Sequence record: OQ223306
Length of the DNA: 50,597 nt
Direction: 5' to 3' (one strand)
Source of the DNA: Shigella phage S2_02
The notes under the pieces are model-generated. The model was not told the origin of the DNA. It saw nothing but the letters and a program-made list of their open reading frames with translations, and made no database searches. A program made the translations under genes and the position numbers. Shown here piece by piece: positions 5,501-42,971 of this stretch. Positions within the stretch are counted from its first letter, which is position 1; every line of letters starts with the position of its first letter.

Positions 5501-6034
5501 ATGGATAAAATCACAATTTGGGGCCAGACAATCAACCTGTTTCTCGGCACTCGCCGCGTGGCAATCTTTGACTTCGACGGAACACTGAGTGACGGCTCAA
5601 AACGTCTTCACCTGCTACCGACGAAAGATTTGCACTTAACGGAAAGCTGGTCTGAGTTCAACCGCGCGGCAATATTTGACAATCCTATACGTAGTACGAT
5701 TGATGTGATGAACTCCATGTTTGCAGCTGGGTATCATGTGATCATTTTAACCGGGCGAAGCGATGAGGTGCGTTACGCATCTGAGTTATGGCTTAAGCAT
5801 CACGGCGCGCGATATGATTACTTAATCATGAGGCCGCATACCGACAACCGCAAAGACACGGTAATGAAAGAAGAGGCAGTGCGCGCTATCGGCATTGAGA
5901 ACATCCTGGCGGCTTGGGAAGACTCACCGCAAATTATTCCATTATTCCGGTCGCTTGGGATAACCACTTACGCTGTAGTTGACTATGGCGATAAAGTCCA
6001 CGATCATTTAAAATCTCACGGGGTAGAGAAATGA
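5501..6034 (+). CDS. HAD-superfamily phosphatase-like protein (177 aa)
   Basis: ORF track; N-terminal IFDFDGTLSD (DxDGT) motif and downstream ILTGR motif typical of HAD phosphatases. Confidence 0.65.
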   Translation: MDKITIWGQTINLFLGTRRVAIFDFDGTLSDGSKRLHLLPTKDLHLTESWSEFNRAAIFDNPIRSTIDVMNSMFAAGYHVIILTGRSDEVRYASELWLKHHGARYDYLIMRPHTDNRKDTVMKEEAVRAIGIENILAAWEDSPQIIPLFRSLGITTYAVVDYGDKVHDHLKSHGVEK

Positions 6035-6142: not shown

Positions 6143-6715
6143 ATGAAAACAGCTATCGTTTTAAACGGCGCGCCTGGAGCGGGAAAAGACACTATCGGAT
6201 GCATCCTGGCTGACACTTACGATCACGTAGCCTTGCGCAGCTTCAAAGCGCCAATGTTTGAGATTGCCCGGGCAATCCTGGGTGAAGCTAACTACGAGTA
6301 TTTCATGTTCTTGTATGAGGACCGTCGATATAAAGAAGAGCCAGCATCCATCCTGAACGGTAAAAGCCCACGCCAGTTTATGATCTGGATTAGCGAAGAA
6401 GTCATCAAGCCGCAGTTCGGAAATCGCTTCTTCGGTATGCGAGCGGAAAGCAAGGTGAAAGAGTCGCACTCCCTTTCGGTATTTACTGACGGTGGATTCA
6501 AAGATGAGATCTTGCAAATGATTGAAGGCGATATCCAAGTCAAGCTATGCCGCATACATCGCAACGGCTGCAACTTCGATAACGACAGTCGAGATTATAT
6601 CTACCTGGATAATATGATCGGTGTCAACGGTTATCAGGAATGTGACTTCTTCTCTGTCGAAGGTCATCCAGAAATTACCGCTCAGCACATAGCCGCCACG
6701 TTCATCAATAAATAG
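6143..6715 (+). CDS. P-loop nucleotide/nucleoside kinase-like protein (190 aa)
   Basis: ORF track; Walker A GAPGAGKDT at N-terminus; stop TAG inside box 6711-6731. Confidence 0.65.
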   Translation: MKTAIVLNGAPGAGKDTIGCILADTYDHVALRSFKAPMFEIARAILGEANYEYFMFLYEDRRYKEEPASILNGKSPRQFMIWISEEVIKPQFGNRFFGMRAESKVKESHSLSVFTDGGFKDEILQMIEGDIQVKLCRIHRNGCNFDNDSRDYIYLDNMIGVNGYQECDFFSVEGHPEITAQHIAATFINK

Positions 6716-36746: not shown

Positions 36747-38765
36747 GTGACAATTAACATCAAAAAGCAAATCGCATTACTTGGCGAGGACTATATAAAA
36801 CGCACTCAAGAACGATTCACTGTCGGTGAGGTCGTTCCTTATCCGTATCAGGTTGTTGCTTATGCCGAGATCGCAAAACGCCTTTCAAATTACGAGCATC
36901 CATTCTTTGTTAAAGCGTCAGTATCTGCTGGTAAAACAATCATATTCGCTATGGTGGCAAAGCAGTGTCAAAAAATGGGATTGAAAATGCTTGTGCTTGC
37001 GAGGCAGGGTGAGATTGTCGATCAGGATAGTGAGGAGATCGATAACTTCGGGGTAACGAACTCCATCTTCTCAGCGTCGCTTGGAATCAAGTCCTGCTAC
37101 TTCCCGATCGTGGTTGGCTCTGAGGGTACTGTTGCAAATGGCCTAAACAATGAGTTGGCTGATTTTGTCCCGCATGTAATTGGGATCGACGAATGTCACC
37201 AGGTGGATTGGGAAGACCTTGCTCAAGCCATTGAAGGAAAGGAAACGATGGAGCAGATGAAGGGGGAGAAAGGGAAAGTTATTATGGACGGGGAGATTCC
37301 TCTGATTGGTAATGATGGGAAACCTTTACTTGGAACTAAGCGAAGCCAGTACACTATCGTAATCATGGAGATGATGCGTCGCTGTAAAGAGATTCACGGG
37401 CATGACCTCAGAATATTTGGCATGACAGGATCTGAATTTAGGGGCGTTGTTCCGATTCTGGTGGAGAATACAAAGGCGTTAGGATTCTGGCGTGAGCGCG
37501 TAACTGATATCGATACAAACTATCTGATTGAGTTCGGCTCTGTTGTGCCGACGATATTCGGTTCAACTGACGGAGTACACTACGATCTGGATAAGTTCAA
37601 GGCGTCAAGCGAGGACGGCGTACAGGACTTTACAGAGAAAGATATGAAGGCTATGGAAGATGAGATCCTTCATGATAAATCCCTGACTCAGCGAATCATG
37701 CAAATGGTCGCCAAAAAGGCAGAAGAACGCAATGCGGTCCTGATTACATGTGCCGGGGTGCGTCACTGTAAAGAGGCGGCGGCGGCACTTCCACCTGGAA
37801 GTACCTATGCAATTATCACTGGCGAAACAGACACCAAAACGCGCAAGAAGATTCTTGATGATGTGAGGGCCGGGAAAATTAAATACACCTTTCAGGTAAT
37901 GGCGCTCACTACTGGCGTTAACGTTCCAAATTGGGATTTCAGTGTCATACTCCGCAAGATAGGGTCGCTCACACTGTTGATTCAACTTTTGGGTAGGGGT
38001 ATGCGTCTGCTTAAACCCTGGCAGGTTGCTGAGGGAATGGTTAAGCAGGACCATCTGGTATGGGATTTCGCAGGTACGATGGATGAATTGGGTCAGCTTT
38101 ATTTCGATCCGATACTTGAGCAGGCACAATTCCAAAAGCGTTTTGAAAACGGCAAAGATCCGAAAACATGTCCGAAATGCGGTTGCGTAAATAGCTTCTA
38201 TGCTCGACGATGCGTTAACGTTATCGACGGCGAGCGCTGCGATCACTTCTGGACTTCTCAGATTTGCGAGGACCAGGTTGATGAACGTACCGGGAAAATT
38301 CTTGTTAAAGGGTGTGGTGCTGAGAATGACGTTGTGGCACGAGTCTGTCGTTGCTGTGATGTTTCTCTCGTCGATCCGAACCTGAAGTTGTCCGGTAAGG
38401 CGTACACTAAGAATGACTGGTACGAGGTCAAGAATTTTGAGGTTACGCTAACCAAAAACCAAAAGGGCGTGATATACAAATATACGCTGATTAATGATGA
38501 CGGCGATGAGTTCAAGGCGTATGAAAAATTCTTCCCTGAGTCCGACTCTAAGATTTGCGGTACGCTATGGAAAACGAAAGGTGTATTACCTCATGTGTCA
38601 GATCCTAAAATGCGTCGCTACTTTATTGGAATGAAGAACGCTATCAAGATCGTGCAATACTCGCATCATATAGCGCATCCGGTGCGCGTAACTCATCGCC
38701 GCAACCAGAAGAAAGAAGATATTATCTCACGCAAAGACTTCGGTATGGAGGATATCCCGGAATGA
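36747..38765 (+). CDS. superfamily-2 DNA helicase (DEAH-type) with C-terminal zinc-finger region (672 aa)
   Basis: ORF track (GTG start); Walker A SAGKT and motif II DECH; C-terminal Cys clusters. Confidence 0.8.
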   Translation: MTINIKKQIALLGEDYIKRTQERFTVGEVVPYPYQVVAYAEIAKRLSNYEHPFFVKASVSAGKTIIFAMVAKQCQKMGLKMLVLARQGEIVDQDSEEIDNFGVTNSIFSASLGIKSCYFPIVVGSEGTVANGLNNELADFVPHVIGIDECHQVDWEDLAQAIEGKETMEQMKGEKGKVIMDGEIPLIGNDGKPLLGTKRSQYTIVIMEMMRRCKEIHGHDLRIFGMTGSEFRGVVPILVENTKALGFWRERVTDIDTNYLIEFGSVVPTIFGSTDGVHYDLDKFKASSEDGVQDFTEKDMKAMEDEILHDKSLTQRIMQMVAKKAEERNAVLITCAGVRHCKEAAAALPPGSTYAIITGETDTKTRKKILDDVRAGKIKYTFQVMALTTGVNVPNWDFSVILRKIGSLTLLIQLLGRGMRLLKPWQVAEGMVKQDHLVWDFAGTMDELGQLYFDPILEQAQFQKRFENGKDPKTCPKCGCVNSFYARRCVNVIDGERCDHFWTSQICEDQVDERTGKILVKGCGAENDVVARVCRCCDVSLVDPNLKLSGKAYTKNDWYEVKNFEVTLTKNQKGVIYKYTLINDDGDEFKAYEKFFPESDSKICGTLWKTKGVLPHVSDPKMRRYFIGMKNAIKIVQYSHHIAHPVRVTHRRNQKKEDIISRKDFGMEDIPE

Positions 38766-39241
38766 TTGAATGGTCAAAATACCTTAAGTACAACTACGGT
38801 AATCTTTACTGGCTCGTCACTAGAAATAATAGAGTTCAAGCTGGAACGCTTGCTGGAACTATAAGTGATGAGGGTTACGTGAAAGTCATGATGCGCAAGA
38901 AGGCGTATCATGCTCATAGAATAATATGGGAGATGCACTACGGAAAAATACCCGAAGGGATGGAAGTAGACCATATAAATCACGACAGGACTGACAACAG
39001 AATAGAAAACCTTCGTCTTGTCACTAAGCAAGTTAACATGAAAAATAAATCATCATATTCAAATAACAAATCTGGCGTTACTGGAGTAAGCTGGCACTCA
39101 AAGAAAAAGAAATGGGTAGCTCAGATACAAAGCAACAAGAGGAAAAAGATGTTATATGAAGGGGATAGCTTTGATGATGCAGTGAAGGCGAGAAAGTCAG
39201 CAGAGATAGAGCTTGATTTTCATAAAAATCACGGGGTGTAA
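38762..39241 (+). CDS. HNH endonuclease with AP2-like domain (159 aa)
   Basis: ORF track; HRIIWEMHYGKIPEGMEVDHINHDRTDNRIENL HNH core; paralog of 9130 and 49475 genes. Confidence 0.8.
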   Translation: MIEWSKYLKYNYGNLYWLVTRNNRVQAGTLAGTISDEGYVKVMMRKKAYHAHRIIWEMHYGKIPEGMEVDHINHDRTDNRIENLRLVTKQVNMKNKSSYSNNKSGVTGVSWHSKKKKWVAQIQSNKRKKMLYEGDSFDDAVKARKSAEIELDFHKNHGV

Positions 39242-39242
39242 A

Positions 39243-39662
39243 ATGGCTGTACTAGATAAGGGTGATTATTTAGAATATTATGAACGAGATCCCAGCGATA
39301 CTCGAAAGGAGGTTGCTCATCAGATTGATAGCTTCCAGTGGCTAAAGCACAATCATCCGGAATTGCTTGCTTGGCATAGCGTTAATGAAAATAAGAAGAC
39401 AAAAGTTACCGCGATGATTGACCAGCAGTCAGGATTACTTAAGGGCGTATCAGACTTCGTTATCCTGATTGGTGTAAACTCACGTTACCCGTTCGCAGCT
39501 ATCGAACTCAAACGGGTTAATAAGTCCGGCAAAGGAAAAGCGTCACCAGTCAGCGATAAGCAAATTGAGTTTCTCAAAAAGGTTCGTGAACGCGGTGGAT
39601 TCTCTGCCGTTGCATACGGATTTGAGCAATTCAAGCTGGCAATATGCGATTTAACTAAATAG
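39243..39662 (+). CDS. putative VRR-NUC / PD-(D/E)XK nuclease (139 aa)
   Basis: ORF-track frame 39213..39662; ATG 39243 follows upstream stop; GVSDFVIL ... AIELKRVN resembles D...E.K nuclease motif. Confidence 0.5.
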   Translation: MAVLDKGDYLEYYERDPSDTRKEVAHQIDSFQWLKHNHPELLAWHSVNENKKTKVTAMIDQQSGLLKGVSDFVILIGVNSRYPFAAIELKRVNKSGKGKASPVSDKQIEFLKKVRERGGFSAVAYGFEQFKLAICDLTK

Positions 39663-41449: not shown

Positions 41450-41527
41450 AACTTTATTTTGCTGTAGTATTAACACCGCTAATTTCATTTTCAGTAATGT
41501 ATTTCATTATCATGTAAGGATTAAAAT

Positions 41528-42679
41528 ATGTCACAAGCTAAAATCACCACCGAGCAACTTATTGAAGAGCGCATGAGCGGCCTAACACTTCGCGAAATCG
41601 CGGAAAAATACGGTATGCACATTCGCACTGTTGAAGCGCGACATGCCAAGCTGGCAAAAGAAGGTCATTTTCACGGTAACGAGCATGTTGCTAAAAACGT
41701 GCCCGAGGGATTCATGGTAAAAGGCACGTCGACGATGATTCGCGGCGATGGGACCGAGGTAGTGCGCTGGGTAAAAACCGATCAGGACCGTGAGAAGATT
41801 GCGGCAATGATGGAAGCAGCGCGTATTGCATTCTGTGAAGACCTGCCGAGAGCGAAGCCAACCGAGCTACTAACCTCGCAAGGGCTTACGACAGCGATGG
41901 GTAAGCTGGCACTCTATCCGGTATTCGATCTTCATATTGGCGCGCTTGCTCACAAGCATGAATGCGGAGAGAACTACTCTACCGACGTAGCTGAAAAAGT
42001 GCTTGGCGACTTCTTCAATTACGCGATCGATATTGCCCCGAACGCAGAGAAAGCTGTTCTGTTAATCGGCGGTGACTTCCTTCACTCGGACGGTCTTGAT
42101 GCTGTTACCCCGGCAAGCGGTCACGTTCTGGATCAGGATTCACGATATGCAAAATTGGTGCATGTGGCTATTCGATCGGTGCGTCGCGCTATCGACAAAA
42201 TGCTACTGAAGCACAAAGAAGTCGAAGTCCAGGTTATCGAAGGGAACCACGACCAGGCCGGGATGATTTGGCTACGCGCTGCAATGGCTGCATACTATGA
42301 AGACGAGCCGCGAGTATTCGTTGACGTCAGTCCTATGATTCTGCATAAGACTCGCTGGGGAAATACCTTACTGGGATACACTCACGGTCACACGATGAAA
42401 AAGGCAGACACGCGACTTGCAGCGATGGCGGCAGACTTCCGCGCAGACTTTGGAGAAAGCAAATACGTGTATACTCACAGTGGGCACTGGCATCATCAGA
42501 CAATCACTGAACACTCACTCGGTATTGATGAAGTTCACGGTCAGCTTGGGGCGAAAGACGCATATGCGGCGCGCGGCGGGTGGCGCTCATATCGCCAGGC
42601 GGCGGTAATCATTTACGATAAGCAGTTTGGTGAAATCGGTCGATTCATCTATCGTCCAGAAATGACAGGATCGCACTAA
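41528..42679 (+). CDS. calcineurin-like metallophosphoesterase with N-terminal HTH-like domain (383 aa)
   Basis: ORF track; motifs DLHIG, GGDFLHSDG, GNHD, GHTM, HSGHWHH; N-terminal LTLREIAEKYGMHIRTV HTH-like segment. Confidence 0.65.
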   Translation: MSQAKITTEQLIEERMSGLTLREIAEKYGMHIRTVEARHAKLAKEGHFHGNEHVAKNVPEGFMVKGTSTMIRGDGTEVVRWVKTDQDREKIAAMMEAARIAFCEDLPRAKPTELLTSQGLTTAMGKLALYPVFDLHIGALAHKHECGENYSTDVAEKVLGDFFNYAIDIAPNAEKAVLLIGGDFLHSDGLDAVTPASGHVLDQDSRYAKLVHVAIRSVRRAIDKMLLKHKEVEVQVIEGNHDQAGMIWLRAAMAAYYEDEPRVFVDVSPMILHKTRWGNTLLGYTHGHTMKKADTRLAAMAADFRADFGESKYVYTHSGHWHHQTITEHSLGIDEVHGQLGAKDAYAARGGWRSYRQAAVIIYDKQFGEIGRFIYRPEMTGSH

Positions 42680-42713
42680 TTACTAAAAATACCCGAAGGG
42701 ATTCGGGTATAGT
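42669..42713 (+). promoter_or_regulatory. Early-type promoter module: degenerate box + 18 bp + TATAGT
   Basis: Box GATCGCACTAATTACTAAAAA contains upstream stop; TATAGT 42708-42713 after hairpin ACCCGAA/TTCGGGT. Confidence 0.45.
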
Positions 42714-42742: not shown

Positions 42743-42919
42743 ATGAAGCGAGTTAAGTGCATCCGAAATGACTCCAAAACACTTCCATTCCGCGTAAATC
42801 AGATCTATAGTGTTGGTTATGATTTCGGTGGTGGATTATTTGAGATTTACGACGGGCGAGATTCAGCAATCCAATCTCCCCTGAATGGTCATTATCTGGA
42901 ATTTATTGAGATAGATTAA
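42743..42919 (+). CDS. hypothetical small protein (58 aa)
   Basis: ATG with SD AAAGAGGA downstream of module 42669-42713; below ORF-track cutoff; followed by terminator. Confidence 0.45.
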   Translation: MKRVKCIRNDSKTLPFRVNQIYSVGYDFGGGLFEIYDGRDSAIQSPLNGHYLEFIEID

Positions 42920-42940: not shown

Positions 42941-42971
42941 GGGCTGGCATGATTTACATGCTGGCCTTTTT
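42941..42971 (+). terminator. Rho-independent terminator upstream of lysis cassette
   Basis: 10-bp stem GGCTGGCATG/CATGCTGGCC (two G-T pairs) followed by T5. Confidence 0.55.

Follow-up and report, generated by a model that had tools for sequence, protein, structure and literature searches.

Among the described enzymes that resemble the protein reported here are the metallophosphoesterases (MPEs) of Cluster A mycobacteriophages (A10ZJ24 gp48, Bxb1 gp47), which are also phage-encoded, stand-alone and host-toxic, and which some hosts allow the phage to do without. The toxic A10ZJ24 gp48 is a phosphodiesterase that breaks down the genomic DNA of the host both in vivo and in vitro. The Mre11/SbcD nucleases carry a C-terminal capping domain and have a partner, Rad50 or SbcC. 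In the group formed by the archaeal PolD small subunit DP1, a 3'-5' exonuclease, and the eukaryotic B-subunits, DP1 has an OB fold and is bound to the polymerase catalytic subunit. Lambda NinI is a phage enzyme of the MPE superfamily, often encoded between replication/nin and lysis genes, and the Pseudomonas putida nuclease MPE/PdeM (ligase-associated DNA damage response endonuclease) is a protein of about 200 aa tied to Lhr/ligase operons.

For the T1-like phages themselves, a host-chromosome degradation function has been known genetically since 1981, when it was recognised through viable T1 mutants that transduce at higher frequency. A paper of 2024 that reannotates phage TLS describes degradation of the host genome by T1 and TLS and reuse of its nucleotides, and assigns no gene product to this function. 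A defence that senses m6-dAMP from chromosome degradation has been found to protect against a Tunavirinae phage. In addition, a 2026 preprint on the DRT7/UG10 reverse-transcriptase defence reports that escapers of phage Bas1 (AugustePiccard) were mutated in bas01_0050, by both missense and frameshift mutations; the gene was toxic in E. coli, so that co-expression was not possible, and its product is described in the preprint as a nucleic-acid-targeting phosphoesterase. The lambda escapers in the same screen had lost Gam. Preprints on Metis, PUA-Cal-HAD and ApeA report no T1-like escape mutants in the orthologous gene.

The window, that is, the whole 50.6-kb stretch of DNA that was analysed, is the complete genome of a T1-like siphophage (Tunavirus, Drexlerviridae), and its right third shows 92-94% DNA identity to Shigella phage Shfl1 and relatives. 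The gene order is as in T1: helicase, Dam methylase, small ORFs, a gene for a helix-turn-helix (HTH) domain joined to an MPE, an SH3 gene, holin, endolysin and spanin. The HTH-MPE gene starts at 41528 and the SH3 gene at 42743, followed by the holin, the endolysin (43253) and the spanin (43738), and this order is the same in Shfl1 and Bas1. The preliminary description had read 41528-42679 as an HTH-like segment fused to an MPE, and this fusion was borne out by the HTH matches of homologs, by the AF2 helices and by conservation. The full motif set DxH, GDxxH/D, GNHD, GH and GHxH was likewise recovered, all five motifs being present in order and conserved. The features of the gene are the following:

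41515..41520, + strand: Shine-Dalgarno sequence TAAGGA, 7 nt 5' of the HTH-MPE ATG (read directly from the sequence)
41528..42679, + strand: HTH-MPE gene, 383 aa, ATG start (ORF list; ortholog of T1p16, Shfl1p67 and bas01_0050; phrog_704)
41540..41665, + strand: N-terminal HTH, residues ~5-46, probably of the sigma-70 region 4 / LuxR-GerE type (Pfam, PHROG, homolog matches, AF2)
41702..41842, + strand: beta-hairpin VKGTST...G...WVKT (strands 62-71 and 77-86) and long helix 88-104, a family-specific connector
41894..42667, + strand: calcineurin-fold metallophosphoesterase domain, residues ~123-380
41927..41935, + strand: motif I, D134-L-H136, invariant or at least 90% conserved
42071..42085, + strand: motif II, G182-D183-F-L-H186 (GDxxH), D183 and H186 invariant
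42095..42145, + strand: family-signature loop LDAVTPASGHVLDQDSR, residues 190-206, AVTPxSGHxLDxDxR (conservation and AF2)
42242..42253, + strand: motif III, G239-N240-H241-D242 (GNHD), N240 and H241 invariant
42383..42391, + strand: motif IV, H286-G287-H288, H286 invariant, H288 invariant in a 52-sequence alignment
42482..42493, + strand: motif V, G319-H320-W-H322 (GHxH), H322 invariant, H320 at least 90% conserved
42677-42679, + strand: stop codon TAA of the HTH-MPE gene (read from the sequence)

The protein matched phrog_704 over its full length (E 2.7e-156, residues 4-380 against profile positions 2-389 of 390). It shares 99% identity with the protein of phage EF3-1, and bas01_0050 is a syntenic ortholog, 65% identical over the full length. 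The orthologs T1p16 and Shfl1p67 appear in RefSeq as 'DNA repair exonuclease', which is a predicted name; elsewhere the database names vary from hypothetical protein, phosphoesterase and metallophosphoesterase to winged helix-turn-helix domain-containing protein, oxidoreductase, Ser/Thr phosphatase and DNA polymerase II small subunit. NCBIfam and PADLOC scans of the protein gave no meaningful match. By tblastn the gene was found in 2,017 of 50,697 phage records, roughly 4%, the matches lying in Drexlerviridae, Jersey-like Salmonella phages, Sodalis phage SO-1, Vibrio siphophages and Rhodobacter/Ruegeria/Roseobacter phages. It is core to Drexlerviridae and also occurs in many proteobacterial prophages. 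When one genome per bacterial species was scanned with a 12-sequence alignment as the query, 74 loci were obtained, nearly all in Proteobacteria, and several of these carry integrases, lysis genes or nin-type genes and therefore look like prophages. We counted 708 close proteins, and 4,594 related clusters among 1.84 billion cluster representatives; nearly all of the 4,594 representatives are 370-420 aa long and were aligned over most or all of their length. The architecture of HTH, hairpin and MPE is found throughout the phrog_704/T1p16 family. It is clear that the S2_02 gene belongs to a large, already catalogued phage family in which the HTH-MPE fusion is the norm.

Taken alone, this sequence stayed below the Pfam gathering thresholds for the catalytic domain, with 15.1 bits against 21.5 for Metallophos and 16 against 27 for Metallophos_2 (E 0.013 and 0.032). 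The Metallophos threshold was passed by some homologs only (for example P0152, 25.1 bits), and Metallophos matched 8 of 40 family members scanned singly. Because the scores of the single sequence were sub-threshold for both the MPE and the HTH, family-level evidence was needed. Among 40 homologs (30-42% identity, one closer at 66%), residues D134, D183, H186, N240, H241, H286 and H322 were invariant, and H136 and H320 were conserved in at least 90%; a 52-sequence set showed the same conservation of the metal motifs. The five metal-binding motifs are also kept in canonical order in homologs of 32-45% identity, and such conservation reflects selection and not chance. In the AF2 model, the part from residue ~123 to the C-terminus forms a beta-alpha-beta-alpha-beta sandwich. 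The model used was calculated from the 52-sequence alignment (mean pLDDT 85.4) and replaced a run with 21 close homologs whose confidence was insufficient (mean pLDDT 67.7). Within the MPE superfamily the family forms a divergent branch without a close solved relative.

The HTH was supported in a similar way. The AF2 model has three N-terminal helices, at residues 8-16, 21-27 and 32-44, with pLDDT of 75-94. Pfam HTH families matched residues 9-50 below threshold (E 0.02-0.4; Sigma70_r4_2, E 0.023), phrog_3855, 'HTH DNA binding protein', matched with E 0.0018, and a profile search of the PDB gave weak GerE and FixJ matches to this segment (E 0.4-1.2). When the N-terminal regions of the 40 homologs were scanned singly, Sigma70_r4_2 was significant in 8 (best E 1.5e-9) and GerE in 4 (2.4e-8). 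The HTH residues are poorly conserved across the 40-homolog alignment, and the target of the domain could be a protein or a specific site instead of bulk DNA.

Some homologs have extra N-terminal modules, of which P0197, P0214 and P0230 are examples. In P0214 an additional N-terminal HTH exceeds the Pfam thresholds for HTH_11, Sigma70_r4 and HTH_24. P0197 (538 aa) has a 150-residue extension in which a ParB/Srx-like 'VDGHHR' motif was seen by eye; Pfam did not confirm it.

Two further elements are peculiar to the family. In the hairpin, residues G61, K65, G66, S68, T69, G75, W81, V82 and K83 are invariant or at least 90% conserved; the hairpin/helix connector was modelled with pLDDT of 80-87, and the linker between helix 88-104 and the MPE sandwich is poorly defined. 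The loop of residues 190-206 shows the strongest conservation apart from the metal ligands, T194, P195, D202, D204 and R206 being invariant and S197, H199 and L201 at least 90% conserved. Residues 190-202 had pLDDT below 50 in both AF2 runs and were modelled as disordered. The loop is probably a family-specific element that binds a substrate or a partner.

The nearest solved folds were SbcD, PolD-DP1 and Mre11. Mre11 was the top Foldseek match, a weak one (E 1.7e-7, TM 0.37-0.45), and among the neighbours of the modelled fold nucleic-acid enzymes have only a narrow lead. Motif II, GDxxH, and motif III, GNHD, follow the Mre11 pattern and not that of PPP. A single-sequence search of the PDB gave no match, the profile search gave only marginal matches to GerE, FixJ and SbcD (SbcD, E 1.3), and hhalign to E. 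coli SbcD covered 16 columns. SbcD belongs to phrog_100, the HTH-MPE protein to phrog_704. Unlike Mre11/SbcD, the HTH-MPE chain ends with the MPE sandwich in the AF2 model, and it has the N-terminal HTH and hairpin in place of the C-terminal Rad50-binding region. No Rad50/SbcC-like ORF was found in the 50.6-kb genome, and none was found beside the homologs in 69 loci. The nuclease that had been suggested at the outset is favoured by the fold neighbours, the motif pattern and a toxic ortholog; its likeness to SbcD/Mre11 extends to the fold and the presumed chemistry, and not to the capping domain, the Rad50/SbcC partner or the PHROG family. The protein is not a true Mre11 or SbcD; at most it works in the Mre11 manner.

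Of three reference proteins compared with the family profile, Bxb1 gp47 gave the best result, a weak match over motifs III-V (E 0.006). The Cluster A MPE differs from the HTH-MPE protein in its length of 255 aa, in having no HTH or hairpin module, in belonging to PHROG 221 and in its place in the actinophage replication module. Neither the OB fold nor the polymerase partner of DP1 was found in the HTH-MPE protein. Lambda NinI aligned with the profile over 16 columns (E 0.19); it is in another PHROG and has no HTH, whereas the HTH-MPE protein lacks the PPP motifs. PdeM, which also has no HTH, gave weak scores. The preliminary description had named homology to a standard Ser/Thr phosphatase without a DNA-binding domain as the finding that would speak against it; no such homology was found for the HTH-MPE protein.

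We then considered the surroundings of the gene. It lies directly upstream of the late lysis cassette, (HNH)/SH3-holin-endolysin-spanin, in 508 of 522 Drexlerviridae, and in Drexlerviridae without the SH3 gene the commonest genes immediately downstream are those of polynucleotide kinase and dNMP kinase. In S2_02, the 58-aa ORF at 42743-42919 (+), between the HTH-MPE gene and the holin, is a stand-alone SH3 (DUF7244) gene, recently described as belonging to the lysis module of Drexlerviridae. Downstream of it, at 42941-42967 (+), comes a strong hairpin resembling a terminator, with an 11 bp stem and a T-run, and a second hairpin, at 42689-42710, lies immediately 3' of the HTH-MPE stop codon.

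Outside this group the neighbours change. No conserved partner gene was found beside the homologs in 69 loci, either by BLAST clustering of the neighbours or by PHROG scans of two ORFs on each side, which removes a two-gene system like SbcCD. The neighbour sequences are not conserved across the 69 loci, and pooled PHROG scans showed three recurring classes of flanking genes: lysis, nin-type recombination (RusA, NinG, NinB) and nucleotide salvage. The last comprises dNMP or nucleotide kinases, a dNMP phosphatase and a deoxyribosyltransferase. About five kinase neighbours were recognised by PHROG profiles, distant prophages included, and jackhmmer with the window's own dNMP kinase found no relatives near the homologs; the kinase link is real but modest. 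Integrases flank the gene where it sits at the end of a prophage, and in one such locus (L076) it comes after the lysis genes and beside the integrase. In a Vibrio phage the gene follows an SSB-like gene. In Salmonella phage Jersey (L078, 5609-8170) it is part of a small inverted island within the tail module, where genes of DNA metabolism are not usually located. The Jersey-like island has four genes, including an anti-repressor-like gene, and is on the opposite strand to the enclosing tail-assembly genes. Overall, the context has the pattern of a self-contained accessory gene of a DNA/nucleotide-metabolism module and not of a multi-gene system.

A role in lysis was also considered. The gene adjoins lysis cassettes in the T1-like phages, in L076, in the Vibrio phage and in at least 9 of the 69 prophage loci. 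We ruled this role out, since nin-type genes are neighbours too and the Jersey copy lies within a tail module, so that the adjacency reflects modular gene order.

Two further ORFs of the window concern nucleotide salvage:

5501-6034, + strand: ORF of the 'polynucleotide kinase' PHROG family, 177 aa, with the HAD DxDxT motif FDFDGT
6143-6715, + strand: dNMP kinase (PHROG)

The ORF at 5501-6034 seems to correspond to the 3'-phosphatase half of a Pnkp-type protein and not to a kinase. The dNMP kinase is the next gene, which is consistent with salvage of nucleotides from degraded DNA; reuse of dNMPs requires this enzyme.

Taken together with the syntenic orthology at 65% identity, the Bas1 data indicate that plaque formation does not require the protein, that it harms the cell and that it has a connection to DNA metabolism. 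The only experimental data on the family, the toxicity and the DRT7 escape, come from one preprint on that ortholog. With a probability of roughly 0.55, we propose that the HTH keeps the enzyme on DNA, where a dinuclear metal centre cuts phosphodiester bonds and needs no ATPase partner. The sigma-70-r4/LuxR-type HTH at the N-terminus would hold the enzyme on duplex DNA, and the C-terminal MPE would hydrolyse DNA phosphodiester bonds by Mre11/SbcD-like chemistry, with no need for a Rad50/SbcC ATPase. The dinuclear metal site would consist of D134, H136, D183, N240, H286, H320 and H322, and H186 and H241 would be the phosphate-contacting or transition-state histidines. The gene would be an accessory one that the phage can lose under laboratory conditions, and action of its product on DNA in the infected cell would lead both to toxicity to E. 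coli and to visibility to the DRT7 defence. Its most likely role would be attack on or processing of host DNA, feeding the dNMP-kinase salvage of T1-like phages. Three elements of this proposal are inferred: that the substrate is DNA, that the HTH binds DNA and that the role lies in action on host DNA. A point against a nuclease is that the unmodified phage DNA would have to be spared.

It is also possible, although we consider it doubtful, that HTH-MPE is the very nuclease by which T1-like phages break down the host chromosome for nucleotide salvage, delivering dNMPs to the dNMP kinase. In that case its activity may also generate the DNA-damage or nucleotide signals sensed by DRT7, and possibly by m6-dAMP systems, in Drexlerviridae infections.

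The adjacency to kinases suggests another function, in which the MPE would remove a 3'-phosphate or a 2',3'-cyclic phosphate from broken RNA or DNA and act together with the phage polynucleotide kinase/phosphatase after the attack of host defence nucleases. The MPE domain of the bacterial Pnkp of Clostridium thermocellum performs such end-healing, polynucleotide kinase and dNMP kinase are the commonest downstream neighbours where SH3 is missing (examples H32 and H33), and the window has an ORF of the 'polynucleotide kinase' family. However, this ORF carries the HAD motif, so that the phage already has a 3'-phosphatase-type domain, and it lies 35 kb from the HTH-MPE gene in S2_02. The adjacency is limited to some lineages, and neither toxicity nor an HTH would be expected of an end-healing enzyme. 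We regard this function as unlikely.

The class of the HTH raises the question of regulation, as sigma-70 region 4 / LuxR domains are used by transcription factors. The HTH might bind a promoter or origin of the phage or the host, or a protein such as RNA polymerase, with the MPE as a sensor or scaffold in the control of transcription or replication, and the position directly upstream of the Drexlerviridae lysis cassette would fit such a regulator. The metal ligands, however, are invariant or at least 90% conserved, which argues for catalysis, and the position relative to the lysis genes varies between phage groups. The frameshift mutants of the Bas1 ortholog are viable, so the protein is not an essential late activator. 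A regulator appears improbable.

To a similar degree, we see little chance that the protein is an anti-defence phosphodiesterase destroying nucleotide second messengers (cyclic or linear oligonucleotides, cNMPs) or nucleotide alarm signals. Rv0805, GpdQ and MJ0936, which are phosphodiesterases, are near fold neighbours, and the gene is an accessory one at variable 'moron-like' positions, such as the Jersey tail-module island and the site beside the integrase in L076. On the other hand, one would not expect an enzyme acting on small molecules to be fused to an HTH, the toxicity to E. coli would be left unexplained, and loss of the gene helps the phage against DRT7 instead of hurting it. There was also no meaningful match to a PADLOC or anti-defence family.

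DNA cutting is more likely than protein dephosphorylation, and the protein phosphatase that the preliminary description had offered as its second reading, a Ser/Thr/Tyr enzyme like lambda NinI brought to DNA or the transcription machinery by the HTH, is very unlikely: it shares the superfamily of NinI, a gene position that is often nin-like, upstream of lysis genes, and records named 'putative serine/threonine protein phosphatase' (H58), but the PPP signatures GDxHG, GDxxDRG and GNHE are absent from the HTH-MPE sequence, which reads FDLHIG, GGDFLHSDG and EGNHDQ, the alignment with NinI is confined to the 16 columns given above, and in two prophage loci NinI-like phosphatase genes adjoin the HTH-MPE gene without replacing it.

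The T1 family is notorious for contaminating laboratories and fermenters and is often represented in therapy collections, and the HTH-MPE gene is core there. If the protein is a nuclease of host DNA, a gap of more than 40 years in T1 biology would be closed, the phage activity that triggers DRT7 would be identified, and it would be explained why T1 mutants can come to perform generalized transduction at high frequency, a matter of relevance to the safety of phages used in therapy. Thousands of siphophages and prophages would then rely for host takeover on one and the same stand-alone nuclease tethered by an HTH. If it is another kind of phosphoesterase, thousands of database annotations would be wrong.

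Several database records of the gene deserve mention. It is annotated as two to three fragments in phage Jk06 (DQ121662.1 / NC_007291.1, 33017-34140) and in the BFVD entries of Salmonella phage 36 and phiJLA23, and in some phages, PP180003.1 (mEp515) among the affected set, a homing endonuclease lies next to or within the gene. The fragmented or interrupted copies suggest that frameshifts or sequencing errors are present or that disruption is tolerated, as would fit a dispensable gene. In records named after Campylobacter (19-60 records) or Pseudomonas phages, the gene has ~96% protein identity to that of E. coli T1-like phages; such records include MG065688.1 (Campylobacter phage A110b) and PP134917.1 (Pseudomonas phage PsgS01F), the latter with a length of 44,679 bp, exactly that of an E. 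coli phage record. Wrong host labels or T1-like contaminants from the laboratory are the likely explanation.

S2_02 itself has an HNH homing-endonuclease gene at 38762-39241 (+; phrog_99, E 2.2e-63), between the helicase gene (36747-38765) and a T1p21-like ORF (39213-39662). In Shfl1 the helicase and T1p21-like genes abut without an HNH gene, so the HNH gene looks like an insertion specific to the S2_02 lineage.
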